This document shows positions 5,248 to 39,803 of a DNA stretch of 64,000 nt, piece by piece. Position 1 is the stretch's first letter, and each line of letters opens with the position of its first letter. Below the pieces are notes generated by a model that worked only from the letters and a program-made list of their open reading frames with translations, did no database searches and was not told where the DNA came from. The translations under genes and the position numbers were made by a program. This stretch comes from an uncultured Pseudomonadales bacterium (GTDB lineage: Bacteria; Patescibacteriota; Microgenomatia; UBA1400; CAYXSR01): positions 61,574-125,573 of the forward strand of contig CAYSEI010000001.1 in the NCBI GenBank assembly GCA_964430265.1, written 5' to 3'.

Positions 5248-8200
5248 ATGCGACAACACCTGCCTAAAATAATTGGAGCATTAACAGCTTTTGTGTTTAG
5301 TGCTGCTATCGGGGCTTTCAGTTTCCACATTATACCTGTTTTTAAACAAAGCTATTTAAAAGAAAAACCTCAAGTTGCTGAAAACAATCCTGTTGCTGAA
5401 TCCAGCGGTAGAGTTTTGGCAGCTGAAGACATACAGAACTCACCTAAGTTAAGCATTAACCTGCCAGCTTTTTTTTCTGATACTACTGAATTTCAGGAGG
5501 AAACAACTTTTACCAAAAAAGTTAATTTACAGGATGAAGTTGAGGGGAGTGGAGTAAGGTTGAACCTGGATGATGCAAGCGAGGTTGTCAGCGGCAGTGT
5601 TACAACAGGCACATTGACGGCTGAAAACATTATTTACTCAATTACTGTTGGTGAAGGCTTGTCTATTACTGAAGGGCAGGAGCCTGTGATTACTAACCTG
5701 GATAAAGGCAGTGATCAAAGCATATACAGCACTTTTAAAGTAAACGGAAGTTCTGTTACTGCAGGTTCAAATGAAGATGTTTTTGAGCTTGTTGAAGGTG
5801 ACAACATGAGCTTGTCATTGGACAGTGGTAGTAAAAAAGTTACCTTTAGCTCTTCAGCGCCTTTAATTTGGACATCCAGTGGAGACAACATCTACTACAA
5901 CAGTGGCAATGTAGGAATAAAAAATATAGATCCGCAGACTGCCCTGGATGTAACAGGAACAATAACTGCAGAAGGTTTAAAACTGACAGACGGAGCACAA
6001 GCTGGATATTATTTAAAAACTGACGTTTCGGGCAATGCTTCCTGGGTGAAGATTGGAAGCGAAGATGCACCATGGAGCTTGGATGGATCAACAGTAACTC
6101 TTGATGAATTAAACTACAATGTTGGGATTGGAACCACTAACCCCAATGCTCAGGTTAACATTGTAGCTAATAGTACAGACCAGCAGCAATTAGTTTTGCA
6201 AGGAGTGGCTGGGCAAACTGCAAATGCACTTGAAATACACGATGAGGATGGGAACGCAAATATATCTTTTGACAAGGAGGGTAATGCAAATTTTGCTGGT
6301 ACAATCACTCAGGAAGGATTTGCTCTATCCGGTAACGGTCTTAATTTTACTGGTGATGCAACTAGTGTTTCCTTGGATGCTTCTACACCTGAGCCGGATA
6401 ATCTTTTTAATAACGGCCTTTTGGAAGATGATCTGTCTGAATGGAATTATACAAAAACCAAAAAAGAAAAATTTTCCAATAATACCCTGGAAACAAATTT
6501 GGATAGCTGGGAAACAAATGGAACTCAGGCAAGCGCCTGGTATGGCAGCAGCTGGGAATACCGTAAAAAGATTACTTTTAATAATTCAGACCAGACAGAA
6601 GATTTGTCTGAGTTTCCTGTTTTAATTAAATTGGAGGAAGGCGTAAATATTGCTTATGACAAAATAGCAGCAAATGGAGCAGATATTAGATTTACTGATT
6701 CGGACGGAACAACAGAGTTATCTTATGAAATAGAAGAATGGAATGAGGGTGCCACTAGTTATGTCTGGGTTGAAGTGCCGCAAATAGATGGTGCCTCAGA
6801 TACTGACTATATTTACATGTACTACGGTAATGATGCTGCCTCTAATGGAGAAGATGCAGACGGGGTTTGGAATGCCAATTATGTAGGTGTCTGGCATTTA
6901 AAAGAAGATCCTAGTGGTGCTGAACCACAGATTCAGGATAGTACCGGTAACAACAATGACGGAAGTTCAAGAGGTAGTATGACAAGTGAAGATCAAATGG
7001 AGGGGGAAATAAACGGTAGTATTGATTTTGCTGGGGACGATGATTATCTTACTTTTGGTACAGAAACAGCAAACTTTGATACAGCAGACCCTTTTACATT
7101 TGAAGGCTGGGTAAAAATTGATGCAAGCTCTAACCAGGCAATAATATCAAAAAAGCGTGTTGGAGGTACTCATAATGGTTATAACTTGAATTATGATGGA
7201 AATAATAAGAAGTTCTATTTTCAGTTGGCCAGAGATGATTATTGGAATGCAGAAATTTATGTTAGAGGTTCAACAGAGGTATCTGCAGGGACAGATACTT
7301 GGTATTATGTAGTGGGAACATATGATGGTTCAGGTACTGCAGCAGGCACACAAATATTTGTAAATGGAGACGGGGAGACAGAAGAAATTGTAATTGATGC
7401 AATGACAGGAAGTTTTTCACCTACTTCGTATAATTTTCAGATAAGCGGTCGTTCAGGAGGAAGTTTGCTTTTTGACGGACAAATTGATGAAGTCAGAGTC
7501 TCAAATAATGCACGCTCAGCAGACTGGATTGCTGCCACATACAAGAGTGTGAAAAATACTTTTGTTTCTTACGGGGATGAACAAAGTGCAGGAAGTGGGC
7601 TTGTAATGCATGAAACAGATACAACATATGATTCTAGTTCTGGTTCAGTGGTTATTAATGCAACCGGTGATAACACAAATCTCAGACAAGCAATAAATCT
7701 TATAAGTACAGAAACATTTAACTTGGAAGCTTATGCATATACTGACGGCAGTGAAGTAACTGCTGATGATGTTCAGTTGTATTACAATGATGCAGCAATT
7801 ATTACATCATACACGAATATGGGTTCCGGATGGTACAAGTTGAGTGCGGAGGTTACTGGTGCTAATGCAGACCGGACAGTAGGAGCTTTAGTTAAGCATA
7901 ATGCGCAGGTATATTTGGACAGTTTCAGCTTACAAATCAGTGATACAAGCAACAAAGTAGTGCACGAGACAACTACAACTTATGGTTCTTCATCTGGATC
8001 AGGATTGATTGATGCAATTGGATTGGAGGATTTGGAGTTTAACCAAGAGATTACTGTAGCTGTTAACGGTACACACACTTTTAGTGTTTATGTGTACAAT
8101 AATACGCCCGGGACAATCGGGGGAACAGTGGATAGTTCAGTGGTAGAGCTTAATCATGAAGGATCAAATATTTCTAATATTTCATATACAGATCAGGGAA

Positions 8201-9390
8201 ATGGTTGGTGGAAGGTAGAAGGTTCAAAATCACTTACCACAGGCAGTAATACGTTTGGGGTGAATGTAAAAACAGATAAATCAGTATATATTGATAATCT
8301 GCAGGTGGTGGCAGGCAGGGGAGAGACAAAAACAATTACTATACAGAATACAGGCTCTGGTTTAGCCAAGCTAGTTGTTGAGTCAACAACAACTTTAAAT
8401 ACGGGGTTGGATTCGGAAAATGCTTTGGTTTTAAAAGGAGTGGAAAACCAGCAGGCTGATCTGATGCAGTGGAAGGATTATGAAAACAATATTCTGGGAG
8501 TTATTGATCAAGATGGCAACCTGGGTGTGGGAACTTCGGATCCTGGGTATAAGCTGCAAGTTGGTGAAGCAGGAGACGGAACAGTAGCACGGGCAAATGC
8601 CTGGGAAACTCTTTCTGATGCCAGTTTGAAAACAAACATTGATCAAATATTAGATCCTTTGGGGAAGATTGATGAAATGAGGGGAGTAAGATTTGATTGG
8701 GTATCTACACAAGAAAGTTCAATTGGTTTTATTGCCCAAGAATTAGAAAAAGTGATGCCCGAGGTGGTATCCACGGGAGAAGATGGATATAAATCAATTA
8801 ACTATCAGGTACTAACTGCATTATTAACGGAAGGAATTAAACAGCAACAGCAGGAAATTGAATTTATACAGAAACATTTAGGGTTAAAAACTGATTTTGT
8901 CGTATCATCAACAAGTAATTATAGTGATTTGAATGCAACCAGTTCAGCACAGCTTGATAAATTGATTGTGACTGACCTGGGAGTAACCGGAGAGATAACT
9001 AACGGAGTTGTTAATATAGACGGCTTAGACGGTGAGATAAATGCATTGGGAAGCACACTTAGACTGCAAAGCTTACCCGGTGCGGGCAGTTTGGATGTTT
9101 TTAAGGGAAAAATAGTTTTAAATCCCAATGGTGATATTGAAATAACTGAGGGGGTTTTAAAAGCAAACGATTCAATGCGCGGTAAAGTTGAATTAGAGGA
9201 GGATGTTGAAGGCAACAAAATAGAAGTTGAAAAAGAATGGGAAGAATCTCCTGTAAGTATTAATCTTACTCCGAGCTGGGATACCAATGTTTGGGTGACT
9301 GAATTAAACAAAAACGGGTTTGTAATCAACTTTTCCAAACTTCCTGAAAATGCAGAAGAGAAGCAAATATACTGGACAGCCATCTGGTAA
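5248..9390 (+). CDS. Giant membrane-anchored surface protein with DUF2341-like, LamG/concanavalin-like and tandem CBM-like domains plus a tail-fibre intramolecular chaperone (peptidase S74-like) autoprocessing domain
   Basis: Features seen in the 1380-aa ORF:
- An N-terminal transmembrane helix.
- A YRKKITFNN...DIRFTD...YEIEEW...VWVEVP...YMYYGN block (DUF2341-like).
- A GVWHL...FTFEGWVK region (LamG-like).
- Two domains of about 110 aa each beginning HET(D/T)TTY(D/G)SSSGS.
- TLSDASLKTNIDQILDP...GFIAQELEKVMPEVV...INYQVLTALLTEGIKQQQQEIEFI, the hallmark of the endosialidase/tail-fibre chaperone domain. Confidence 0.75.
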   Translation: MRQHLPKIIGALTAFVFSAAIGAFSFHIIPVFKQSYLKEKPQVAENNPVAESSGRVLAAEDIQNSPKLSINLPAFFSDTTEFQEETTFTKKVNLQDEVEGSGVRLNLDDASEVVSGSVTTGTLTAENIIYSITVGEGLSITEGQEPVITNLDKGSDQSIYSTFKVNGSSVTAGSNEDVFELVEGDNMSLSLDSGSKKVTFSSSAPLIWTSSGDNIYYNSGNVGIKNIDPQTALDVTGTITAEGLKLTDGAQAGYYLKTDVSGNASWVKIGSEDAPWSLDGSTVTLDELNYNVGIGTTNPNAQVNIVANSTDQQQLVLQGVAGQTANALEIHDEDGNANISFDKEGNANFAGTITQEGFALSGNGLNFTGDATSVSLDASTPEPDNLFNNGLLEDDLSEWNYTKTKKEKFSNNTLETNLDSWETNGTQASAWYGSSWEYRKKITFNNSDQTEDLSEFPVLIKLEEGVNIAYDKIAANGADIRFTDSDGTTELSYEIEEWNEGATSYVWVEVPQIDGASDTDYIYMYYGNDAASNGEDADGVWNANYVGVWHLKEDPSGAEPQIQDSTGNNNDGSSRGSMTSEDQMEGEINGSIDFAGDDDYLTFGTETANFDTADPFTFEGWVKIDASSNQAIISKKRVGGTHNGYNLNYDGNNKKFYFQLARDDYWNAEIYVRGSTEVSAGTDTWYYVVGTYDGSGTAAGTQIFVNGDGETEEIVIDAMTGSFSPTSYNFQISGRSGGSLLFDGQIDEVRVSNNARSADWIAATYKSVKNTFVSYGDEQSAGSGLVMHETDTTYDSSSGSVVINATGDNTNLRQAINLISTETFNLEAYAYTDGSEVTADDVQLYYNDAAIITSYTNMGSGWYKLSAEVTGANADRTVGALVKHNAQVYLDSFSLQISDTSNKVVHETTTTYGSSSGSGLIDAIGLEDLEFNQEITVAVNGTHTFSVYVYNNTPGTIGGTVDSSVVELNHEGSNISNISYTDQGNGWWKVEGSKSLTTGSNTFGVNVKTDKSVYIDNLQVVAGRGETKTITIQNTGSGLAKLVVESTTTLNTGLDSENALVLKGVENQQADLMQWKDYENNILGVIDQDGNLGVGTSDPGYKLQVGEAGDGTVARANAWETLSDASLKTNIDQILDPLGKIDEMRGVRFDWVSTQESSIGFIAQELEKVMPEVVSTGEDGYKSINYQVLTALLTEGIKQQQQEIEFIQKHLGLKTDFVVSSTSNYSDLNATSSAQLDKLIVTDLGVTGEITNGVVNIDGLDGEINALGSTLRLQSLPGAGSLDVFKGKIVLNPNGDIEITEGVLKANDSMRGKVELEEDVEGNKIEVEKEWEESPVSINLTPSWDTNVWVTELNKNGFVINFSKLPENAEEKQIYWTAIW
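7600..8310 (+). repeat. Tandem duplication of a domain of about 110 aa within the 1380-aa gene (copy A about 7600-7945, copy B about 7957-8310)
   Basis: The protein segments HETDTTYDSSSGSVVINATGDN...YLDSFSLQI and HETTTTYGSSSGSGLIDAIGLE...YIDNLQV are clearly homologous and look like carbohydrate-binding modules. Confidence 0.6.
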
Positions 9391-9425: not shown

Positions 9426-12251
9426 TTGATATATAATGAATTTATGGCGCAAAAATACTCTGCAAAGCAGGTTCTGATTGGCCTTATTATTGCTATTACC
9501 TTCAGTTTGATGCTTCTGCTTGTAGCAGGAGACAGTCAAAAAAATGCCCAAATTGTTCAGGCAGAGGACAATTCATTTACAACAAAAAATGCTCCTTTTA
9601 TAGCTACGTTTGCAAGTGTTGATGACCCGCAAAAAATATCTTTTAAAAAAGAAAATTCAGCAATTTCATTTAAAATACCTGACAAGAGTGTAAAATGGGC
9701 AAAAAAAGGAGACAAGCTAGAAGCAGAGGCAGAAAACGGGAAGACCTATTCATATACGCTTTTAAAAACAGAAAAAGGCACAGCTACTGGTTTAAAAGAA
9801 GAAATAGTTTTAAAAAAACCAATAGAACAAAATGTTTTTGCATTTGATATTGATTTTTCTTTATTAAAAGCAAAAAAGGAAAACAATCTTTGGCACTTTT
9901 ACAACTCAGAAGGGAAAGCCCTTTTCTATATCCCCAAACCTTTTATGGAGGATGCAAACGGGGAAAGAAGTGAAAATATAAAAATAGATATTACACAAGA
10001 TAAGCTAAAAATTACTGCAGATAAAGAATGGCTTTTATCAACGGACAGAAAATATCCAGTCACAATTGATCCGACTTTTAAGCTGACAATCCTCACAGTT
10101 CATTCCCATCCCCAGTCAGGAGATAACTGGGTAGTGGATTTTGAAACTCATGGTAAAGCAGACCTTAAAATAATTCCTGATGATCAGGCAACAATTGAGG
10201 ATATTGATTTTGTTTCCCTTAAATGCGGAAGCAAAAAAATGAATCCAGAGATATTACAAAATGATGTTATTTCCTACAAAAACTGGGAATGTAATCAAAC
10301 AGCGACAGTAACACATCTTGTTAATACAGCAGATCCACATACTCTTAAATTTGATTTTGGTGGAGAAATAAACTATGCCTACAATGCACCAGGAAGTACA
10401 ACATATACTTTTACCGGTGTAACTCAATCAACAAATGACTATTATGCCTATGAAGATTACGGAGCAACAGTATTTTCAAACCAGGATGATACAGGGACAA
10501 GTGAAGCAAGCAATACAGATTATGACAACATAGAGGCAGATGATGGAAATAGATGGGTGACAGAAGAAGCAACAAGTGATGGTGATTATGATTCCCAGCT
10601 ATATAAATTTTATATTGATGAAACAGAATCAACAGTATCCCAGCTTGATTTAAAATGGAACGGCTACGGAGAAACAGAGACAGGATATTCCACCTATTTT
10701 TACATCTGGGATTACAACTCTTCTAACTGGGAACAGCTTGACTCCAATGACTTTACAGCAGCTACTGATGCCGATTTAACCGGAACAATTGATAGCAGTG
10801 TAGGCAATTATATTGACATTGAAGGAGAAGTGACGCTGATGGCAAAAACGGAAAAAGTAGTTCCTTGTCCTGAATTTACAGACTGTACATGCGCTGGTAC
10901 AAGTTATGAGACGGTAAACTGTAGTAATGGAGATACTATCTATGTTGACTGTAATGCAGATAAATGTTGGGCACCAACGCCTTCAGGCTTGTATTCTTAC
11001 GATGACGCAATGGATTATTGCGATAACCTGGATCACGGTGGTATTTCTAATTGGGTCCTTCCAGATAAAGATACTTTAGCCAATCTTTGTAATTCAGATT
11101 CTTGTTCTAGTTACTGTTTTGGAGGAGATGGTTACGACGGTGGTTATTTATCTTCAGATATTAATGGATTACAGATCAATACTGTTTTTTTTGATGGTTG
11201 TATTGAGTATACACAAACAGATCCTTACTTTATTCGCTGTGTCAAGGTTTCAAATTCGCTTTATACTGACTACGTAGAACTCAAAGTCACCTACACTAAA
11301 GATAGTGGGGAAACATGTGAGGCGGATAGTGACTGTACTTCCGGAAACTGTGTTGATGGTTACTGCTGTGATACGGCTTGCGACGGCATCTGTGAAGCTT
11401 GTGATATTTCCGGATCTGAAGGCACTTGTACAAATATAGCAGAGGATACTGATCCGGACAATGAATGTGATTTAAGTTGTGCTAATGGCTGTGCAGACCA
11501 GACAGGGGATTGTAATGGCTCTGGTGCTTGTAAAAAAACATATTGTGCTGAAGGTCAGGCATGTTCAAGCGGCAGCTGTGGAACAGGCAACTATTGCAAT
11601 AGCGGCAACCAGGCATATTGTTCTTGTGAAGGTGCAGGTTGTTATAATGACGGCGGATTTGATTATGTCTGCCAGGGGCAGTGTGACGCTTCAGGCAATT
11701 GTACATACTCTGCAAATTGTTCAACACCGGATGAGGTGCCAAACAAGGTAGGCTTTTCCGGAGGAGTGGGCTTGGAAAATGTGGGATTGGATTATGATAT
11801 GCCTGAACCTTGTGCTGACACTACGATTGATAATTGTTTCTGTGATGGAACGGGATATTGTGAGATTACAGCATCAGGCGATACTGTCTATGTTGACTGC
11901 AACGCAGATAAATGTTGGACACCAACTGCTAGTTCCACTTATACTTGGTCGTCAAACTATAGTGAAGGCAATTGTGTTGGTCAAGGTAGCGATTATGAGG
12001 CCTGTCACTACTGTGATACTTTGTCCTACGGTGGTAAGGATGATTGGTTTCTACCAGGCAGAGATACCTTAGGGGATCTCTGTGATTCTGGTGCCTGTGA
12101 AGGAACTTGTTTCGGTGGTGATGGATTCAGCGAGAGATATTGGTGTTCTCAGGATTGGGATCTTATAGAAGCTGGCGTTGTAGATTTTTCTGGTTGTTTA
12201 CGTCAGACCGACGATAAGCACAACGACAACTATGTGCGTTGCGTCCGCTAG
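9426..12251 (+). CDS. Secreted cysteine-rich giant protein with two copies of a DUF1566-like (Lcl C-terminal-like) module
   Basis: The 941-aa ORF has an N-terminal signal/anchor (LIGLIIAITFSLMLLLVAG) and a Cys-rich linker (CTSGNCVDGYCCDTACDGICEAC...). A module with YVDCNADKCW...W(V/F)LP..DTL..LC...CFGGDG...RCV motifs occurs twice. Confidence 0.65.
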   Translation: MIYNEFMAQKYSAKQVLIGLIIAITFSLMLLLVAGDSQKNAQIVQAEDNSFTTKNAPFIATFASVDDPQKISFKKENSAISFKIPDKSVKWAKKGDKLEAEAENGKTYSYTLLKTEKGTATGLKEEIVLKKPIEQNVFAFDIDFSLLKAKKENNLWHFYNSEGKALFYIPKPFMEDANGERSENIKIDITQDKLKITADKEWLLSTDRKYPVTIDPTFKLTILTVHSHPQSGDNWVVDFETHGKADLKIIPDDQATIEDIDFVSLKCGSKKMNPEILQNDVISYKNWECNQTATVTHLVNTADPHTLKFDFGGEINYAYNAPGSTTYTFTGVTQSTNDYYAYEDYGATVFSNQDDTGTSEASNTDYDNIEADDGNRWVTEEATSDGDYDSQLYKFYIDETESTVSQLDLKWNGYGETETGYSTYFYIWDYNSSNWEQLDSNDFTAATDADLTGTIDSSVGNYIDIEGEVTLMAKTEKVVPCPEFTDCTCAGTSYETVNCSNGDTIYVDCNADKCWAPTPSGLYSYDDAMDYCDNLDHGGISNWVLPDKDTLANLCNSDSCSSYCFGGDGYDGGYLSSDINGLQINTVFFDGCIEYTQTDPYFIRCVKVSNSLYTDYVELKVTYTKDSGETCEADSDCTSGNCVDGYCCDTACDGICEACDISGSEGTCTNIAEDTDPDNECDLSCANGCADQTGDCNGSGACKKTYCAEGQACSSGSCGTGNYCNSGNQAYCSCEGAGCYNDGGFDYVCQGQCDASGNCTYSANCSTPDEVPNKVGFSGGVGLENVGLDYDMPEPCADTTIDNCFCDGTGYCEITASGDTVYVDCNADKCWTPTASSTYTWSSNYSEGNCVGQGSDYEACHYCDTLSYGGKDDWFLPGRDTLGDLCDSGACEGTCFGGDGFSERYWCSQDWDLIEAGVVDFSGCLRQTDDKHNDNYVRCVR
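10857..12250 (+). repeat. Intragenic duplication (copy 1 about 10857-11250, copy 2 about 11798-12250)
   Basis: One nucleotide stretch is nearly identical in both copies: gatact(a/g)tctatgttgactg(t/c)aa(t/c)gcagataaatgttgg. The protein-level similarity extends about 130 aa. Confidence 0.7.
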
Positions 12252-23250: not shown

Positions 23251-25818
23251 TTGAGCAAAACTCTAAACCTAGTTAGAAATATCTTAATTCTAAATTTTAG
23301 TTTATTTTTTCTTTTTTGTCCTAAGTCGTGCAGAGCTAATGAAACTGTTTTTTTTGAAGAAAATTTTAATTCTTCAACTTCTGACTTTATGTTTTCTAGT
23401 AAGTGGGATGTTTATTCTAATTTGGGTACCATATATATTAATGAAGGTAATATAAAATTAGATTCGTTTTCTTATTCATTTCCATTTGTTAAAACAAAAA
23501 TTAATCCATTTCCAGAAGAAGATTTTGTTTTAGAAATGAAGCTTAAATATTTAAGATCAGCTAATTGGGGAACAGGTATTTCTATTGGTACAGAGGCACC
23601 ATATAATGGAATTAGCCAAGAAGAGCTTTTAGATCTTGGAAATGATGTACAAATGTTTTTTATTTGGCAAGATGATCATAGAGATTTCCATGTTTCCTCA
23701 AGAAATTGTTATCAGTGTAACCCAGAAGTAACTGACTATCTCAATTGGGAGGAATCAGTAAATGAAGATTTATTTTTGAACATTATGTACATTGATGGAT
23801 ACTATGAAGTTATTTTGAATGATGTTTCCTACTTCAGAAGTTCACAAGCTGTAGTAAAAAAGCCATCTGTTATTTGGTTTGGAAATCCAATTTCGATAAC
23901 TACTGATGGGTCTCCATGGACAAGCTTTGAAATAGACTATATTAGAGTCAAAACTTCTGGATATACGCATCCAGTAATTCTTCTTCCCGGACATGGTGGG
24001 TCTTGGTGTTGGGATGGTTTAATACTGGGAAAAGAATGTAATGAGTGGAAGCAGACACCATTTGTTCATGTTTATGATAATTTTAGAAGTTCAATGTTAA
24101 ATGCAGGATATACAGAGGGAGTAGACTATTATGAATTCTATTATGATTGGAGGGATCATTTGGATAATCTTGCTGCAGATTTGGATACATATATAGATAG
24201 TACTGTTTTAAATGGAAGTCAGGATAATACAAAAGTTAAGCTTGTTGGGCATTCAATGGGAGGATTGGTATCTCGCACATATGCACAAAATTATGGAACT
24301 GAAAAGCTAGAAAAAGTTGTAACCGTAGGTTCTCCCCATAAAGGCGCATTAGCGGCCTACAGAGGATGGGAAGGAGGAGAAACGACTGAATATCCTTCGT
24401 GGCGCAATGTAGCTTTTGAGATTTTAGTGCAAATTCATAAAGATTTTTTTGAAAATCGTATGAAAGCAGTGCGTGAACTTGCTCCGTCCACAAAAGAAAT
24501 GATTCCAATATTTGATTTTCTTAAAGAAAATGACGGAACTATAAAAAAATCGGATTCTCTGATTCATACTAATAATTTCCTAATCAATCTTCAGGAAAGT
24601 ATGGATGGAACTTTAAAAAGTATTATGGCTACAGTCAATGGAAGGGGAGAGAATTCTGTTGAATATTATGTAATTAAGGATAGAAATGTCTTAGATAAAC
24701 TTATGGGTAGATGGGAAGATGGAAGAGTTGAAACTCGGGAAATGACAGATGAGGGTGACGGAACTGTTTTAACAAAAGGAGCGGAAATAGAGGTAGTTAA
24801 TACTGAAACTTTAGATATGGGTCATACAGAATTAATTGAAACATATGAAGGATTGGAGAAGATATTTAATGCTTTAAACATTAATGTTACTCCTAATATA
24901 GTGAGTGTGCCAAGTCCAATTGAAGATGCTTTAGTATTTATCATCCGCTCACCAGCAAAATTAAGAATAACTGCATCTGATGGAGAACAAGCAGGCTATG
25001 GAATAGATAATCCAATTTCTGGAAGTGAATATTATGAAGAAGAGGGTATTGTAATAATTCATCAATTGCAGGAAGGTGATTATAAAGTGGAAGTGATTCC
25101 CACTGGGAGCGGAGAATACCACTTGGATATTGGCAAAATTAAACAAGAAATAAGTGATTGGAAGACATTTAAAGGACAGATTGATGATTTAGAACAAAAA
25201 GATGAATATAATTTCGTATTTTCGTCGGGTAGTGAAGAGGTTGTGCTTGACACCCCCAAAGATGGTGTAAATTATGTTCAATTATCAATAATTAAACTTA
25301 ATCATCTTGAAAATTATATTCGCAATAACGTTGAAGAACCCCAAAAAGACCAGTTTATATGGCATATTAATATAATGTTAGAATATTTACAGGCGCTTAA
25401 AGAAAATGAAATTGAGTACAAATATACATACAATACCATGAAACAATCTTTTTTACTACGAAGAAAACTCGAAAATATAGAAAATGAGCAAAATCGTGTT
25501 TATTGTAAAAATCAAGTTGATGAAGTTATCAAATACTTAAAATATGTGTTGATCAATCGACTCCAACAAAACATATCAAACCCTAATATTCAGAAAATTG
25601 ATAATTTTTATTATGCAAATAATAATACAATTGATGATTTAGAAGATGATTTGGAAATTGAAGCAGAAAAAGGACCTAATAATGTATTAGCAAGCTTATA
25701 TAAATCAATTTTGAAAAGTAAGGAAACGGCAGAGAATACAGAAAGCTTTGAAAAATGGGCGGAGATTTTTTCTAATCGCTTCTACCTCTGGAGTCTTTTG
25801 AGTTTATTAAGTAATTAA
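23251..25818 (+). CDS. Secreted multidomain protein with an alpha/beta-hydrolase lipase/esterase domain
   Basis: It has a signal peptide, a nucleophile elbow (GHSMGG) in VGHSMGGLVSRTYAQNYG, and an upstream VILLPGHGGSW oxyanion region. N- and C-terminal domains of unknown function flank the hydrolase core. Confidence 0.7.
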   Translation: MSKTLNLVRNILILNFSLFFLFCPKSCRANETVFFEENFNSSTSDFMFSSKWDVYSNLGTIYINEGNIKLDSFSYSFPFVKTKINPFPEEDFVLEMKLKYLRSANWGTGISIGTEAPYNGISQEELLDLGNDVQMFFIWQDDHRDFHVSSRNCYQCNPEVTDYLNWEESVNEDLFLNIMYIDGYYEVILNDVSYFRSSQAVVKKPSVIWFGNPISITTDGSPWTSFEIDYIRVKTSGYTHPVILLPGHGGSWCWDGLILGKECNEWKQTPFVHVYDNFRSSMLNAGYTEGVDYYEFYYDWRDHLDNLAADLDTYIDSTVLNGSQDNTKVKLVGHSMGGLVSRTYAQNYGTEKLEKVVTVGSPHKGALAAYRGWEGGETTEYPSWRNVAFEILVQIHKDFFENRMKAVRELAPSTKEMIPIFDFLKENDGTIKKSDSLIHTNNFLINLQESMDGTLKSIMATVNGRGENSVEYYVIKDRNVLDKLMGRWEDGRVETREMTDEGDGTVLTKGAEIEVVNTETLDMGHTELIETYEGLEKIFNALNINVTPNIVSVPSPIEDALVFIIRSPAKLRITASDGEQAGYGIDNPISGSEYYEEEGIVIIHQLQEGDYKVEVIPTGSGEYHLDIGKIKQEISDWKTFKGQIDDLEQKDEYNFVFSSGSEEVVLDTPKDGVNYVQLSIIKLNHLENYIRNNVEEPQKDQFIWHINIMLEYLQALKENEIEYKYTYNTMKQSFLLRRKLENIENEQNRVYCKNQVDEVIKYLKYVLINRLQQNISNPNIQKIDNFYYANNNTIDDLEDDLEIEAEKGPNNVLASLYKSILKSKETAENTESFEKWAEIFSNRFYLWSLLSLLSN

Positions 25819-30757: not shown

Positions 30758-32254
30758 ATGAAAAGGGCGAAAATACTATTAAAAAATGTAGTGGTTAATT
30801 TTTTAACCCAAGCACTGACTTTTTTGGTTTCTTTTATTGCTACTCCGTATATTTTTCATAATCTTGGTGAGGAAAAGTTTGGGTTGTTAATGCTTTTTGT
30901 AACAATAAACGGCTGGTTTGTTATTTTTGATCTGGGAATGATACCGGCAATGATAAAATATTTAGCAGAAATTTTGGAGAATAAGAAAAAAAAGAAAGAA
31001 CTGGTAAATACAGCTTGGACAGCAACTCTATTAATAGTTCTTGCAGGTGGTGGTTTGGTTGCTTTTTTTGCAGACTTTTTAATTAAAAATGTTTTTAAAG
31101 TTTCTTTGGAGATTGAAAGTTTAGCAATTATGAGTTTAAGATTGATGTCAATCAGCTTTGTTTTTACTTTATTGAGTAATTTTTTGACCGGCATACCAAG
31201 GGCAATGCAAAAATTTGAGATTGCCAATTTAAAAAATCTTTTTTTGGGACTTTTTATACCTTTAGGGTCAGTTATACTTTTGTTTTCTGGTTTTGATTTT
31301 TCCGAGGTTATTTGGGTGTATATTTGTACAAATTTTTTCGCTTTTGTAATATTTTTAATTATTGCTAACAAACTTTTGGGAGAAGTGAATATTGGGTTCG
31401 GGTTAAACAAAAAGGTATTAAAAAAGATTCTCTCTTTTTCATTTTTTAAATTTATTTCTCGTTTAACAGCACGAGTAAACTTTCAATTGAACCATTTTTT
31501 GATTGCTTCCTTTTTGTCTGTTTCACAGCTGGGTTTTTATGCAGTGCCAGCAGGAATAGGGGAGAAACTCTTGTCGGTCCTTCCCAACTTGACTCTGCCG
31601 ATTTTTCCTTTAGCTTCAGAGCTGGAAAAGGGTGGCGAAAAAGAAAATATTAAAAAATTGTATAAAGAAGCAGTCAGACTGTCCAATTTTCTTATGACGC
31701 CAGTTTTTATTTTTTTGGTGTTTTTCGGACCGGAATTTTTAGAAATTTGGATGGGAGAGGATTTTGCTAGAAATGCGGGTTTAGTTTTACAAATATTGTC
31801 TTTTGTTTATTTGCTTTCTTCCTATCCTGCAGTTCCGGCTGCAATAATAGAAGGATCAGGAAAACCACAATTGACTGCTTTTTGGGGTGGAGTAAACACT
31901 GTTTTACTAACTTTAAGTGCTTTGATTTTAATTCCGCATTTTGGACTTGTTGGAGCTGCAGGCTCAATGCTTTTTTCTCGAGTTATTCAAGTTCCACTTT
32001 TCATATTCTGGATAACTTACAAAGAGATCGGGATAAAAAAATTAAGATTTTTTTGGGACGGGTATGCAAAGATACTAATTTTAAGTGTTATCAGTGCGGC
32101 AATAGTATATTCACTTCCGCTTGGACAAAATACATTATTCAGGCTGGTTATCTCTTTGTTTATCTACTTAATAATTGGAGCATTTTTTTCCTACATTACT
32201 AATACTATCGGCAAAAGGGATATTAAGACTCTAAAGCAAATTTTAAATAAATAA
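30758..32254 (+). CDS. Polysaccharide/oligosaccharide flippase (Wzx/MOP superfamily)
   Basis: It is a 498-aa protein with about 12-14 transmembrane helices and a polysacc_synt-type N-terminus. Confidence 0.7.
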   Translation: MKRAKILLKNVVVNFLTQALTFLVSFIATPYIFHNLGEEKFGLLMLFVTINGWFVIFDLGMIPAMIKYLAEILENKKKKKELVNTAWTATLLIVLAGGGLVAFFADFLIKNVFKVSLEIESLAIMSLRLMSISFVFTLLSNFLTGIPRAMQKFEIANLKNLFLGLFIPLGSVILLFSGFDFSEVIWVYICTNFFAFVIFLIIANKLLGEVNIGFGLNKKVLKKILSFSFFKFISRLTARVNFQLNHFLIASFLSVSQLGFYAVPAGIGEKLLSVLPNLTLPIFPLASELEKGGEKENIKKLYKEAVRLSNFLMTPVFIFLVFFGPEFLEIWMGEDFARNAGLVLQILSFVYLLSSYPAVPAAIIEGSGKPQLTAFWGGVNTVLLTLSALILIPHFGLVGAAGSMLFSRVIQVPLFIFWITYKEIGIKKLRFFWDGYAKILILSVISAAIVYSLPLGQNTLFRLVISLFIYLIIGAFFSYITNTIGKRDIKTLKQILNK

Positions 32255-32276
32255 TATATATGGTAAACTATAGGAG

Positions 32277-35200
32277 ATGAAAACCTGGCAAAAACTAGTC
32301 AGTAGTATATTTTTATTGGTTGTATTGTTTCTGGTCTTTCCCAAAGAAGCAGATGCATACTTTGGCTATAATGTTCACAGTTTAGCAAAAGAAAATCCGG
32401 AAAACATTTCCCGTATTTTAAATTACCTTGCAAGCAATTGTGAAACCACAATTGTACGATTATGGGGTTATGAATCAACATTTGGCATTCAGGGATATGA
32501 TAATTTGCAAAAAGTACTTGATGCAGCTCCCTCAAATATTAAATTCATAGTTGCGCTTGAAGATTTTCCTTATGGACCTCCTGAAAGTAATCCGGGAGCC
32601 TGGTATTCAAACGGGTATAGAACCAGGTATCGAGATTATGTAGCGCGGATGCTTGACAGGTACGGCAACTCGGAGAAGATATTGATTTGGGAAATGGTTA
32701 ATGAACCGCACTGTAAGGGCGATTCTTCTTGTCTTTCTTCTCTTGTTGACTTTATAAATGACATGAGTAATTTAATGGCATCCAAAACATCAGCATACAT
32801 TTCCCCTGGGTTAATGACCTCGCAAATCCCATTAGATACTTATGAATTTATAACAAATTTGCAAAATATTACAGCCAATTCCTGCCACTATTACAATGAA
32901 TCAAATACCAAAGGGAGTTGTCTTGATGCAGCAAATATTGTTAAGGGAGCGGGAAAGTTTTACTATATTGGTGAAGCAGGATACAAAGCAAGTGGTTCAG
33001 GAGGAAGTGGAAGCTGTACAAGTGCGGACTGTACGAATGTTTGTGGTCTGCAGCCATTGCAGCAAAGATATGATCAAGTTCAAGCTGACAGAAGTCAATT
33101 AACGGGAACAGGAGCAGATGCTTTTATACTCTGGCAATTTTCTCCGCAAAGAAATCCTTTACTGATATGTGATCGTTTTTCAGTTTTTCCTGAAGATCCA
33201 TTGTGTGGAGGAGAAGGTTTGGATTTAATACCCACGGATGTTGGCGAGGACATGGACGAGATTCTGGATGTTAATCAAGAAACAGCTTACGGTCGAAGGG
33301 TCTACGGAAGGGGTATTCCCTGTGGTCCTTTGCGCAGCTGGCCAGCGACTGGGGAAGAAGAAGTACAAACATATTATGATATTTCTGAATGGGAAAACCA
33401 ATACCAAGCGGCAAACGGATTTCCCCAGCATCCGTATGATGCAATGGATTTTGTTCCTTATGATTGGAGTCCGGAAAGACCATTTGTTGGAGACAACTGT
33501 TATCCTTTGGAATATACTACTAAAACAGACTACAATATTGAATATTGTGCAGAACAGCCGGTGGGAACGGATAAAATAAAATATTTTATCCAGCCGCCTT
33601 CAGAGATAATTGATTATCTTGAAGTAGCAGATTTACACATGACTAGTTTACAAATTCCCTTTTTAGGAATAAGCAGAGCTTCATCAAACTATATGTGGGA
33701 CAAAGAAGACAGAATGCAAAACTTTTTAACCAGCTACTTACGCGGTGAATTATATTTTGATAGAACTTGGGTTGATTCAGAAGACGTTACACCGGAAATG
33801 TTGGAAAGGGAAACAGGAGTTATCAGAAAACTTTATCCAAGAGATTGGATGTATAGTGGTGATATTGCTAACAAGTGGAAAGAGAAAGATATGATAATTG
33901 ACAGACTTTTAAAAGCTACATTTCAAGAATACGAAAGTGAGCTAGAAGGACCAATACACGACTATCCATTAATTTACAAAAATGCCAGCGGGGATTTTTT
34001 GTCTGAAGATGATTTTAAAGAAACTTTTCCTTCCGGACTTCCGGACAGAAAATCATATGAAGATGTCTGGCCGGTAAGAATAAGCCAACTGGTCTGTCAG
34101 AATTCAAATATTTTGGTTGATTATGGATATGATCAGCATCCTGCTTGTCAGCAAGGAACTAATTGGCTAGCTGATTCTGGATCACATGAAGATGAAGGAC
34201 TTTTGTATCAAGAGCTCTGGCCTAAATATTTTCCAATTGCCTCAAAAGAGGATGCCAAAGTTATTGTTGACTTTAGTATGCCTGATGATAATGAAGCGAG
34301 AAATATTAATGATGTTCCAATCAAAAACCAAAGATTTTTTGATATGAGCTTAAATGAGCAGAAACAAATACTTGAACAATATAACGGTCAATATGTGACT
34401 AGGGGTGGAGATGGTTTAATGCGGCATAGGGTAGAAGAAATTTTTGTTCCGTATATAGCTGAAATGGAAGATTTAAGCGACTGGGTTTTTAAAACAGCAA
34501 TATCTGAAGAAAGACAAAAAGAAGCCAGAGATAATGAATATGCCGACTCAAGTATTGATAATGTTAAGCTTCCTAGTGACGACGAATGCAAGCTGGATGA
34601 AGCAAGAGGCGGGATAGCTGATCCAGTTGCAGTTAATTATCAAAATTATTTACACGACACAAATGATCCAACAGTTCCAATTCGCAGGGAAGATATGTGG
34701 GTTTGGGTATTAAATGAGGTTGAAGCAGACAAAAGTACAAAAGAACCGACATATTGTGCTCCTGATCCTTGTGATCCGACGTTTCAAGACTGCAGTAATG
34801 ATTGTGTCAGTCCGAACAAAGAAACTGAAAAATCAAAAGGAAAGATTGAAACAAAGTTTCCTTTACTGAATACTGTAGCTTCAAGGCTAATAGGGGAAAA
34901 ATATGGAGCCTTTAATATATTTTTTACAGATGAGCAATTAAATACAATAAAAACAAAAATTAGTGAAAAAGTAGATAACAAAGTAAATCCTTTGGAACTG
35001 CCGGCAGAAGGTAAATCAAAATTTGACTGGGTAGAGCAAAGTGGAATAAGTACTAAAAGTGATGGGAAAATGTGTGATGAATATTGTGAAGGAAACAGAG
35101 ATGTAAAATCAGTAGACAGCAGTGGGAAAGAAGTTGATTTCTATTTTCCTTATGTAGGCTCTTTACAAATTTTCCGCCAGCTGATTTCTAGGCAGCTTCT

Positions 35201-35819
35201 GCCATATGGCTATGAACTGGCAACAGCAGACGCACAATCTGTTGATTACGATACTTCAGGTAGGGAATTGGGCTCTTGCCAAGCAGTTGATATTCCTGAC
35301 ATGGCACCAATGTCGGAAAATGCAATAGCACAGGCAGCAGTCAGTGATGATGAGGCAAGAGTTTTAGGAGGTATTTTGTATGTTGAGTCAGCGCATGCTT
35401 ATCAAACGGGCGATTCAACTCATTGTCCGGTTAGTCCTTGCGGTGCAGTGGGATGGTTTCAAATAGTTTGTGGATGGGAGAATGTTAATTGTGATCCAAG
35501 CAAAGGTGCAATATGTGATGCATACTGTTCAAACGGCCAAGTGCAGAACAAAAACGCATTTGCCTGTCCAGCAGGAATAACAGATCCGCAGCAATTATGT
35601 GATCCAAATACAGCAGCAGAGGAAGCTATTAAAAAGATTAGAGGAAAAATGGGCAAGTCTTCGGGTGAAAGCTGGACTGCTGATGAAGCAGGCGAAGCAG
35701 CCGCCAGATATTTTGGTGAAAGCGCTTCTATTGCAAACTGCAGTGACGGACAAGAATGGTCACGCCTAGGAAATTGTACTTATTGTGAATTTGTCAGAGA
35801 ATACTTCAATAGTTACTAA
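32277..35819 (+). CDS. Secreted giant protein: N-terminal GH5-like glycoside hydrolase plus a C-terminal lytic transglycosylase (SLT/lysozyme-like) domain
   Basis: It has a signal peptide, a GH5-type acid/base block ILIWEMVNEPHC and a later WQFSP block. The C-terminus reads LYVESAHAYQTGDSTHCPVSPCGAVGWFQIV, resembling the SLT 'ES...GAxGLMQ' signature. Confidence 0.6.
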   Translation: MKTWQKLVSSIFLLVVLFLVFPKEADAYFGYNVHSLAKENPENISRILNYLASNCETTIVRLWGYESTFGIQGYDNLQKVLDAAPSNIKFIVALEDFPYGPPESNPGAWYSNGYRTRYRDYVARMLDRYGNSEKILIWEMVNEPHCKGDSSCLSSLVDFINDMSNLMASKTSAYISPGLMTSQIPLDTYEFITNLQNITANSCHYYNESNTKGSCLDAANIVKGAGKFYYIGEAGYKASGSGGSGSCTSADCTNVCGLQPLQQRYDQVQADRSQLTGTGADAFILWQFSPQRNPLLICDRFSVFPEDPLCGGEGLDLIPTDVGEDMDEILDVNQETAYGRRVYGRGIPCGPLRSWPATGEEEVQTYYDISEWENQYQAANGFPQHPYDAMDFVPYDWSPERPFVGDNCYPLEYTTKTDYNIEYCAEQPVGTDKIKYFIQPPSEIIDYLEVADLHMTSLQIPFLGISRASSNYMWDKEDRMQNFLTSYLRGELYFDRTWVDSEDVTPEMLERETGVIRKLYPRDWMYSGDIANKWKEKDMIIDRLLKATFQEYESELEGPIHDYPLIYKNASGDFLSEDDFKETFPSGLPDRKSYEDVWPVRISQLVCQNSNILVDYGYDQHPACQQGTNWLADSGSHEDEGLLYQELWPKYFPIASKEDAKVIVDFSMPDDNEARNINDVPIKNQRFFDMSLNEQKQILEQYNGQYVTRGGDGLMRHRVEEIFVPYIAEMEDLSDWVFKTAISEERQKEARDNEYADSSIDNVKLPSDDECKLDEARGGIADPVAVNYQNYLHDTNDPTVPIRREDMWVWVLNEVEADKSTKEPTYCAPDPCDPTFQDCSNDCVSPNKETEKSKGKIETKFPLLNTVASRLIGEKYGAFNIFFTDEQLNTIKTKISEKVDNKVNPLELPAEGKSKFDWVEQSGISTKSDGKMCDEYCEGNRDVKSVDSSGKEVDFYFPYVGSLQIFRQLISRQLLPYGYELATADAQSVDYDTSGRELGSCQAVDIPDMAPMSENAIAQAAVSDDEARVLGGILYVESAHAYQTGDSTHCPVSPCGAVGWFQIVCGWENVNCDPSKGAICDAYCSNGQVQNKNAFACPAGITDPQQLCDPNTAAEEAIKKIRGKMGKSSGESWTADEAGEAAARYFGESASIANCSDGQEWSRLGNCTYCEFVREYFNSY

Positions 35820-38159: not shown

Positions 38160-39803
38160 ATGAACTGTGTGAACCGTGAAACTTTTCCCATAGATGAACA
38201 AAGTCGGGATTTAGAAGATATTTCAGGGAATGAAATATCAACAAAACCAATAACGATTTGTCAAGCAAAAGACCAGGCCAGATTAACTTCAACATTATTG
38301 CACAATCTTGAGGTTGACGGTGAAAGTATTAATGAACTGTATGAAAGTGTTTATAGAAGGGACCATAATTTTTGTCATGGAAGAAGAACAGAAGGGGACT
38401 TAAAAGATATTTTGGAACACGGACCTTGTCTGCGTAACATGCAGGAGCTTAAACAATATTATTTTCCTGCATTTTTGGCTATCCGGGAACATGATGTGAT
38501 TCAGGTTATAACCGGGAAAAAAAGAAGACATGCACAAAGAGGAGCTTTTTTTACCTTGTGTGCTTTGTGTCATTACCGTGATCAAATGGTCAAAATTGAC
38601 AATGGAATTGATGATCCGCAAAAAGTAATAAGTGATGAGCAAATATATTCAACCATAACAATGATTAGGTATCATTCACATCCCCAAGAATTAGAAGGAA
38701 TGGATAGTTTTCTTAGTGTAAAGGAAATAGCAGAGGAAATACCTAGTATTAGTACGGAAGAAAGACAAGAAATACTAAAAAAACAGCAGGATGCAATACT
38801 TAAGGCATATAGGGAATCTGAAGGAGAGTGGAGTGCAAAAGAGGCAAGGGCTGTTGCAGCCAAAGTAAAAAGCGATTTTGAAAAATTGGGAGAAAACTAT
38901 TTTATCAGGGATGAAGAAGCAGAATTATATGATATTGTACCGGGGTGGAGGAAATACCATGAAATGGCTATGAAAGGAGAATTACTTGAAGGGGTTGAAG
39001 AAAGAGTGGATTTTGAAAATTTGCGTCTAATGGCAAAACTAGTTGCTGCGGCTGATAAATTGGACGGAATTGCAGGGGGAGCGTTTTCTTTTATAAGGCT
39101 TTTTAAAACTCCAATAAGTGATGAAAGACCTTTTTACACTAGAACAGAAGGTTATGAATTTGACAAAGAAAATTTGGATAAAATGCTTTTAAGCAGGGAA
39201 GATATTTTAAGGATTTTTCAAGGAAAGGGAGATTCAATTGAAAGAGAATTATGGCAGCAAGCTTTGATTGGCAGGGGAGAATCCCCAAGTGATGAATGCC
39301 GGATATATGCAGAGTTTTTAAAAGCATACGAATATTTGGGAAATCTTTCAAAAAGACAGGACATAATGATTGTCAAGAGCAAGCTGAGCTACTATTTACG
39401 GGAACGTTTTAAGGCTTGGAAAGGTTTTATTAATGCTCTTGAGCAAGGTGAGGGTATTGCTGATATTGAAGAAGCTGAAACTGAAAAAGATCTTAAAAAA
39501 GGAGTCATTGGTTATTTCAGAAAGGTAATTGAAAAAGAAGAAAAAAAGTCAGGGAAAGATAAACATAAGCCAAAAGAAAAAGAATGTTTAAAAGAAGATT
39601 TTGTTTTTGTAGTGGTGATGTTAATCAGTAAACTCAAAGAGGAAGGGGATATTTTTTCACTTCCGGAGGAAGAAAGAAAAAAGATTGCACAAAAAATGAA
39701 GCGGAAAGCAAACATAATAGGAAAATATCTTGATGAGTTTTATCCCCAATCTGTTTACGGAGCGGGTAATCCGAGTAAAAAGAGCTATTATCCGCCATAT
39801 TAA
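38160..39803 (+). CDS. Hypothetical cytoplasmic protein (547 aa, E/K-rich)
   Basis: It is a long clean ORF with no recognisable domain. Confidence 0.5.
   Translation: MNCVNRETFPIDEQSRDLEDISGNEISTKPITICQAKDQARLTSTLLHNLEVDGESINELYESVYRRDHNFCHGRRTEGDLKDILEHGPCLRNMQELKQYYFPAFLAIREHDVIQVITGKKRRHAQRGAFFTLCALCHYRDQMVKIDNGIDDPQKVISDEQIYSTITMIRYHSHPQELEGMDSFLSVKEIAEEIPSISTEERQEILKKQQDAILKAYRESEGEWSAKEARAVAAKVKSDFEKLGENYFIRDEEAELYDIVPGWRKYHEMAMKGELLEGVEERVDFENLRLMAKLVAAADKLDGIAGGAFSFIRLFKTPISDERPFYTRTEGYEFDKENLDKMLLSREDILRIFQGKGDSIERELWQQALIGRGESPSDECRIYAEFLKAYEYLGNLSKRQDIMIVKSKLSYYLRERFKAWKGFINALEQGEGIADIEEAETEKDLKKGVIGYFRKVIEKEEKKSGKDKHKPKEKECLKEDFVFVVVMLISKLKEEGDIFSLPEEERKKIAQKMKRKANIIGKYLDEFYPQSVYGAGNPSKKSYYPPY

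Follow-up and report, generated by a model that had tools for sequence, protein, structure and literature searches.

A predicted exported protein combining a GH5-like head, an acidic middle module and a GH23/SLT-like tail in a Microgenomatia genome

We analysed a 64,000-nucleotide stretch of contig CAYSEI010000001.1 (assembly GCA_964430265.1, positions 61,574 to 125,573 of the forward strand; hereafter the window) from an ultrasmall bacterium whose genome is placed in the Microgenomatia of the Patescibacteriota, and in it one open reading frame (ORF), here called the query, that encodes a protein of 1180 amino acids. The query is composed of a head of glycoside hydrolase (GH) family GH5, a large acidic middle module and a Cys-rich tail related to the lytic transglycosylases of family GH23, and we are highly confident of the domain identities given to head and tail. 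With only modest confidence, we propose that the whole is a Sec-exported three-module enzyme acting on cell-envelope glycans. GH5 and GH23 are known kinds of enzyme; what is new is their combination on this scaffold, the tail subfamily, which is invisible to Pfam, and the scaffold itself. The features of the query are as follows, in window coordinates.

32277..35819, + strand: whole ORF, 1180 amino acids, ATG to TAA, codons checked
32277..32357, + strand: Sec signal peptide, predicted by eye over residues 1-27 (MKTWQK ahead of 15 hydrophobic residues, ADA/Y at the end)
32358..33236, + strand: GH5 (clan GH-A) head, mannanase-like, residues 28-320, from PF00150, PDB mannanases and homologs
32703..32705, + strand: codon of Glu143 (NEP motif), predicted acid/base, invariant in 19 of 19 sequences, codon checked
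32973..32975, + strand: codon of Glu233 (YYIGEAGY), predicted nucleophile, invariant in 19 of 19 sequences, codon checked
33243..35255, + strand: middle module, residues 323-993, acidic, without Pfam family or structural match, family-defining
35289..35816, + strand: Cys-rich GH23/SLT-like lysozyme-fold tail, residues 1005-1180
35385..35387, + strand: codon of Glu1037 (LYVES), predicted catalytic Glu, invariant in 22 of 22 sequences, codon checked

Head, tail and middle module of the query

The head was recognised by PF00150 (Cellulase) with 26.5 bits (E 5.6e-6, cut-off 23.5) when residues 1-320 were scanned alone, and with 23.1 bits, slightly below the cut-off, on the full-length protein; homologs score 24-42 bits and some of them carry a precomputed PF26410 'GH5_mannosidase' tag. 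Its best PDB sequence matches were all GH5 beta-mannanases (1qno, E 5.2e-7; 3ziz, E 1.5e-6; further 3wfl, 3wh9 and 4awe). An initial annotation, made from the DNA alone, had described the ORF as a secreted fusion with a GH5 NEP block in its N-terminal third: the block is present (ILIWEMVNEPHC, residues 135-146) within both the Cellulase and the mannanase matches, and the domain is indeed N-terminal, although with residues 28-320 it takes up the first ~27% of the sequence and not a third. N142-E143-P144 aligns with the NEP of 1qno (the paired Glu being position 169 by count of the alignment), while in mannanase 3ziz the LLEEYGY Glu is the partner of E233. Across 19 aligned sequences, the query and its 18 GH5-headed relatives, R61, N142, E143, H204, E233, W286 and several Cys are invariant; the GH5 assignment is thus borne out by sequence, including conservation of both catalytic Glu. 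From this homology we infer that the head folds as a GH5 (beta/alpha)8 barrel, and 'mannanase-like' refers to its nearest relatives only, with no specificity implied.

The tail was far less visible. Pfam, NCBIfam and PHROGs profiles, applied to the whole sequence as well as to five segments of it, matched the GH5 head only and nothing in residues 320-1180, and when the C-terminal 206 residues were used in a word-indexed search, one fragment was returned (P0021, 70% identity). Run exhaustively over 1.84 billion representative proteins, HMMER with a tail profile of 3 sequences recovered 22 proteins at E <= 1e-3, and in almost all of these the domain sits at the extreme C-terminus of a protein of 700-1500 amino acids. 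E1037, C1055, G1059, Q1062, C1072, Y1145 and Y1169 are invariant in the 22-sequence alignment and five Cys nearly so (C1050, C1080, C1084, C1108 and C1155), following the pattern (A/G)(I/V)L-x-(I/V)-E ... C-x-x-x-C(G/S)A-x-G(P/W)(M/F)Q(I/M) ... Y(Y/H/F)G. This order is that of lytic-transglycosylase motifs I-III, which we use as a lead only. Searched against PDB sequences, the 22-sequence profile matched phiKZ gp144 (E 0.01), MltC (0.53) and EmtA/MltE (~1), values that are marginal taken alone, and it was the only profile to give a lytic transglycosylase signal in this search. The single- and 3-sequence profiles returned lactate oxidase (E >= 0.018, no significant stretch), a match that we dismissed as chance.

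E1037 (E1037-S1038, motif I) aligns with the Glu of (I/A)ES in gp144, MltC and EmtA, its partner in gp144 being position 115 (native numbering, by count); G1059-W-F-Q1062, with invariant G and Q, stands at motif II, which reads GWFQ in gp144 and GPMQ in most family members; and the invariant Y1145 in ARYFGES (family Y(Y/H/F)G), a candidate for the Tyr of motif III (A-Y-N-x-G), follows in the right order, outside the alignments to known lytic transglycosylases. The SLT-like block that had first been noticed here, LYVESAHAY...GAVGWFQIV at residues 1034-1064, is present and holds three of the seven invariant columns (E1037, G1059 and Q1062). Neither of the two motifs is therefore a chance match, the GH5 block lying inside Pfam and PDB matches and the SLT-like block containing invariant columns of its family.

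Structure prediction gave the tail a lysozyme-like alpha-helical fold, as the initial annotation had anticipated. Its structural neighbours were housekeeping lytic transglycosylases at ranks 1-7, then GH23 true lysozymes and a chitinase at ranks 8-11, while the type VI secretion system (T6SS) effector Tse3 and Bdellovibrio DslA appeared at ranks 15 and 20. A lytic-transglycosylase-like tail is thus supported at both profile and fold level. Of the Pfam profiles that had been put forward for the protein, Cellulase is above its cut-off for the head alone and SLT has no match in the query, even at E <= 10; PF01464 (SLT) is nonetheless the commonest weak match across the 22 tails (4/22, best E 0.0016, all sub-threshold). 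Because that threshold was not reached, we file the tail as a divergent relative with the SLT fold and not as a Pfam SLT member. The tail family has no second invariant acidic residue, which would favour a single-Glu mechanism, such as the non-hydrolytic cleavage to 1,6-anhydro-MurNAc by lytic transglycosylases.

The stretch between the two domains, passed over in the initial annotation, is the largest part of the protein, a conserved module of ~670 residues and not a linker. It is acidic (130 D+E vs 69 K+R) and gave no Pfam family and no structural match, its carbohydrate-binding module (CBM)-like matches remaining below significance; its structure model is of moderate quality, and the module may represent a new fold. 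The 'many Cys in between' of the initial annotation was overstated, since Cys make up 1.9% of the middle module, 3.4% of the GH5 domain and 6.2% of the tail.

The three modules belong to a single gene. The ORF had been placed exactly in the initial annotation, and a protein identical to it (P0001) occurs once in the public protein collection, on a 405,517-bp NCBI contig. Both domain junctions are found in independent relatives, P0003 and P0011 sharing head and middle module as a single contiguous stretch and P0002 sharing middle module and tail, so the ORF is no assembly chimera. A lone Shine-Dalgarno-like string, AGGAG (window 32272..32279), abuts the ATG with zero spacer; the start codon is supported despite this, because homologs begin MKTxQK. 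We also considered horizontal transfer and found no case for it: the GC content of the ORF (0.37-0.40 vs 0.34 in its neighbours) is within the window range and is matched by window stretches holding other large secreted-protein genes. The earlier description of the protein as secreted holds as a reading of its N-terminus, which looks by eye like a signal peptide and resembles that of long relatives (MKTWQK followed by a hydrophobic core in the query), and the product is accordingly predicted to be exported via Sec.

The middle-module family and its loci

The homolog search returned 19 relatives, all with a GH5 head except P0002, and the heads are 41-57% identical to that of the query, or 30-34% in P0003, P0011 and P0017. 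P0003 (1263 amino acids) and P0011 (1076 amino acids) share query residues 1-950/976, P0017 shares residues 12-990, and P0002 (1182 amino acids) matches residues 326-1180 at 48% identity while its first 320 residues differ. An iterative profile search among the collected proteins brought the middle-module set to 19 proteins, the added members having E-values of 3e-69 to 1e-7 before they joined the profile. Some of the family combine a GH5 head and the middle module without the tail (P0007, P0008 and P0016); conversely, the tail is found with other heads, a NAGPA phosphodiester glycosidase in P0031 and CarboxypepD_reg in P0023, and in further proteins with no recognisable head. P0022, of the tail family, has a DUF11 match and falls outside the middle-module set. 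In P0025, which also carries the GH23-like tail, residues 704-756 inside the middle module gave a weak, sub-cut-off match to the VirB2-like T4SS_pilin profile (E 2.2e-4). As far as these sequence comparisons reach, a rare family of Patescibacteria proteins is built around the middle module as its conserved core, with heads that can be exchanged and a tail that may be absent. Rarity is also apparent from a 5-sequence profile search, which found two loci in 185,579 species genomes (the P0011 contig and one distant locus) and, in metagenomes, the P0011 contig.

Two of the non-matching ends have features of their own. P0017 (locus L005) ends at about residues 1020-1207 in a different Cys-rich tail, 'ALSYWGEETNFSS...GLGCGILG', that looks lysozyme-like by eye; as 'ALSYWGEETNFSS' gave chance antibody matches only in PDB sequences, we leave this tail unassigned. 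The head of P0002 (residues 28-320; loci L001/L002) contains 'VVLNEINMAREW' and 'KILTEFG', which resemble the strand-4 and strand-7 motifs of clan GH-A (NE and TEFG); with no Pfam or PDB match and an hhalign probability of 0.1% against the GH5 profile, this head is likewise left unassigned. As to record labels, P0005 is assigned to Candidatus Shapirobacteria and locus L012 to a Patescibacteria group bacterium. The 385-kb contig of P0011 (L011/L004/L013) is labelled 'Candidatus Bathyarchaeia archaeon'. Besides the Patescibacteria-type protein P0011, it holds a bacterial sigma-70 factor of the extracytoplasmic function (ECF) type and, with an array of VirB2-like pilins, a VirB6-like gene. The label looks wrong, or the contig mis-binned.

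The family has a recurrent genomic setting. At six of the 11 family loci examined (those of P0003, P0011, P0023, P0027, P0029 and P0008), the gene is the last of a tandem array of PF18895 T4SS_pilin (VirB2-like) genes of a type IV secretion system (T4SS), with one pilin gene on the 3.7-kb contig of P0023 and five to seven at the other five loci. Immediately downstream, four of the pilin loci have a TrbL/VirB6-like gene (mutual identity 34-51%, weak TrbL tag), and at L010 a VirB4/TraG-type ATPase lies ~6 kb away. In a conserved arrangement, a divergently transcribed polyprenyl synthase precedes the array at L003, L004, L007 and L010; it is accompanied by an ECF sigma factor, with mevalonate-pathway genes beyond, at the first three, and at L010 by a prenyltransferase instead. 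No pilin genes were found at the remaining five loci, namely those of the query, P0002, P0017 and P0031 (a short contig) and L012. Across the loci, the presence of the tail and linkage to pilins were not correlated.

VirB2 arrays of this kind are known in the lineage. Passages of Quinonero-Coronel et al. 2025 (PMC12102498) report 441 of them, with 2-11 pilin genes and especially in Microgenomatia and Saccharimonadia, state that most Patescibacteria genomes with VirB2 have no detectable VirB1, and make no mention of a large gene closing the arrays. Wang et al. 2023 (PMC10633639) and a 2025 review (PMC12857230) describe both the T4SS and its pilin genes as essential for S. epibionticum, an epibiotic and cultured Saccharibacterium. 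Within the passages of literature examined, we found no description of the GH5/middle/tail architecture or of the middle module.

The query lies in a different setting, 22 bp behind a flippase gene, and is followed by two tRNA genes on the opposite strand and then glmS. Scans of the flippase-ORF gap for promoters and terminators gave background level only, and it is plausible, as far as the DNA can tell, that the two genes are co-transcribed. Gene order is shared with the P0002 locus, where Pth and a flippase come before P0002 and glmS and an NTPase lie farther downstream, and P0002 is therefore the positional ortholog of the query. Similarity between the two starts at about residue 326; with the P0002 head devoid of GH5 similarity, the orthologous loci carry different heads on the same scaffold. 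The flippase and other genes of the window are listed here.

30758..32254, + strand: Wzx/MurJ-type (MOP) flippase, 498 amino acids, 22 bp before the ORF (Polysacc_synt 75.7 bits, MurJ 36.8 bits)
38160..39803, + strand: ORF of 547 amino acids, without Pfam match; no similarly sized gene at that position in the P0002 locus
23251..25818, + strand: lipase-type alpha/beta-hydrolase ORF, 855 amino acids (PGAP1, LCAT and Palm_thioest matches)
5248..9390, + strand: Laminin_G_3 + DUF2341 + Peptidase_S74 ORF, 1380 amino acids, tail-fibre-like surface protein among bacterial chromosomal genes
9426..12251, + strand: Lcl_C ORF, 941 amino acids, also matching a GH114-associated N-terminal domain, putatively surface- or glycan-related, right after the 5248..9390 ORF

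The 547-residue product is not similar to what the VirB6-like genes at the pilin loci encode. Upstream in the P0002 locus (L002), a 607-residue gene has the same PGAP1/LCAT/Palm_thioest set as the hydrolase. Peptidase_S74 is an intramolecular chaperone of endosialidase and tail-fibre proteins.

Candidate roles at the cell envelope

We propose the following mechanism, in which export, substrates, transglycosylase over hydrolase chemistry and cellular role are all predictions. The protein would be disulfide-rich, exported, and act extracellularly on envelope glycans, the head as a retaining GH5 glycosidase with Glu143 as acid/base and Glu233 as nucleophile, and the tail by cleaving the bond between N-acetylmuramic acid and N-acetylglucosamine in peptidoglycan with its single invariant Glu1037, in the manner of a lytic transglycosylase. 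The acidic middle module (~670 amino acids) would hold the two together. The usual home of the family is the end of a VirB2-like pilin array, before a VirB6/TrbL-like gene, and it is from this place that we propose wall breaching as the most likely role: the peptidoglycan and an associated glycopolymer of a cell wall, either the producer's own or that of a host, would be opened locally to let through a surface apparatus or a contact between cells, the query copy having been relocated behind a flippase gene. We favour the T4SS/VirB2 apparatus as the primary association of the family, and hold the wall-breaching role itself to have a little under an even chance.

Several points weigh against this proposal. 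The GH23-like tail is missing from three of the pilin-linked proteins (P0003, P0011 and P0008) and is thus dispensable for whatever function the family has at the arrays, and the sample of contexts is small (11 loci) and non-random. A VirB1-like protein would be looked for in a T4SS or pilin cluster, where six of the 11 family loci lie and that of the query does not; in the 64 kb of the window there is no pilin-like or VirB6-like ORF, and the neighbouring flippase and downstream glmS point to biogenesis of the cell's own envelope. As to the modules, GH5 spans many specificities, and the substrate of the head is putative and its barrel a prediction from homology; GH23 also holds true lysozymes and a chitinase, and the chemistry of the tail is likewise predicted; and the model of the middle module, of moderate quality, does not suffice for a claim of a new fold.

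The surroundings of the query suggest a more ordinary task, that of a housekeeping autolysin or wall remodeller in which the tail trims the cell's own peptidoglycan and the GH5 head a self-made glycopolymer, the flippase exporting the lipid-linked precursor of the latter. The short gap to the Wzx/MurJ-type flippase with no clear promoter or terminator, the order flippase, ORF, glmS conserved at the ortholog locus and the structural matches to Slt/Mlt enzymes all fit, and lytic transglycosylases are classically self-directed. However, the ortholog at the same locus has an unrelated head (hhalign 0.1%), which sits oddly with a match between enzyme and self-made polymer, the family is far from universal in these bacteria and indeed very rare (22 tail hits in 1.84 billion representatives, two loci in 185,579 species genomes), and more than half of the sampled loci lie in T4SS pilin arrays. 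We therefore regard this explanation as unlikely, although it is one to be taken seriously. The suggestion of the initial annotation, that an episymbiont attacks or remodels the envelope of its host, has a circumstantial case: family members lie in T4SS pilin arrays and heads are swapped between orthologous loci, but the position of the query beside a flippase and near glmS fits work on its own envelope equally well.

A stronger version of the wall-breaching proposal would make the middle-module family an unrecognised component of the essential Patescibacteria T4SS/VirB2-pilus, with the tail supplying the 'missing' VirB1-type activity, the heads matched to host glycans, the module a new fold docking to the pilus or VirB6, and the query a relocated paralog that, if this were true, would do the same job at another site. 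We consider this version rather doubtful. The exchange of heads could also be that of polymorphic effectors, and the query would then serve antagonism or predation as an effector by which a host or competitor cell is lysed or perforated, the strong form of what the initial annotation had suggested. A Cys-rich protein, secreted as read from its sequence, with two modules that cleave envelope glycans would suit such a function, Tse3 and DslA are among the structural neighbours of its tail, and the family is tied to a T4SS thought, according to passages of PMC10633639, to export proteins. Yet no immunity-like gene adjoins the ORF, which is followed by tRNA genes and glmS, no toxin-delivery domain is present, and the closest structures of the tail are housekeeping lytic transglycosylases and not effectors. 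The idea overlaps our preferred explanation, from which it differs mainly in target and outcome, and as a separate account we find it very improbable.

Finally, the protein could be a secreted polysaccharide degrader for carbon acquisition, in which the GH5 head works and the middle module and tail bind or anchor; the broad GH repertoire of Microgenomates has been interpreted as carbon degradation in parts of Danczak et al. 2017 (PMC5581439). The invariant catalytic-type Glu and G-x-x-Q of 22/22 tails argue for catalysis over binding, heads that are not depolymerases (NAGPA, CarboxypepD_reg) take the same position, the contexts are envelope and T4SS genes and not sugar-uptake or catabolic ones, and the CBM-like matches do not reach significance. 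Carbon acquisition is thus an improbable explanation.

Little is understood of the ways in which Patescibacteria, the Candidate Phyla Radiation (CPR), attach to their hosts and draw on them, and in S. epibionticum, the only genetically tractable species, passages of PMC10633639 describe the T4SS and a VirB2-like pilin array as essential. The family offers a testable candidate for the wall-breaching step, a profile-invisible SLT-fold domain often encoded by the last gene of pilin arrays, and its exchangeable glycosidase heads could report host envelope specificity. For annotation, a 'hypothetical protein' becomes a three-module architecture, with two domain families that now have no profiles.

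Comparison with known systems

The head shares with GH5 beta-mannanases of the fungal type (1qno, 3ziz), which we take to be represented by Trichoderma reesei Man5A of subfamily GH5_7, the WE(M/L)xNEP(H/R)C block and a downstream nucleophile Glu, together with the conserved R, H, Y and W typical of clan GH-A. It differs from them in that the alignment covers just ~130 residues with modest E-values (5e-7), in a Cys-rich insertion with conserved C247/C252, and in that its clade (41-57% identity) was seen solely in Patescibacteria-type metagenome proteins.

For the tail, the closest known systems are the family-1 (GH23) lytic transglycosylases Slt70/Slt, MltC, MltE(EmtA), MltF, C. jejuni Cj0843c and phiKZ gp144. 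Compared with these, the query tail has a sequence identity of 11-21% and no Pfam SLT match, 11 Cys of which seven are invariant or nearly so in its family, and extra Cys-rich sequence inserted after motif II, ahead of the following helix, and tails of its type stand at the extreme C-terminus of secreted proteins of 700-1500 amino acids.

As whole proteins, PrgK (pCF10) and TraG (pIP501), the multidomain VirB1-type peptidoglycan hydrolases of Gram-positive T4SSs described in passages of PMC12102498, are likewise large, exported and multi-catalytic wall cutters with an SLT-type domain, and are encoded in T4SS clusters. According to the same passages, they pair that domain with a peptidase, CHAP or LytM, whereas the partner is GH5 or another glycosidase in the query family, and their SLT domain is N-terminal and visible to standard profiles, whereas the query tail is C-terminal and profile-invisible. 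The query also differs in lying outside a T4SS locus, and some of its pilin-linked relatives in lacking the tail; six members of its family, on the other hand, are found between a pilin array and a VirB6-like gene.

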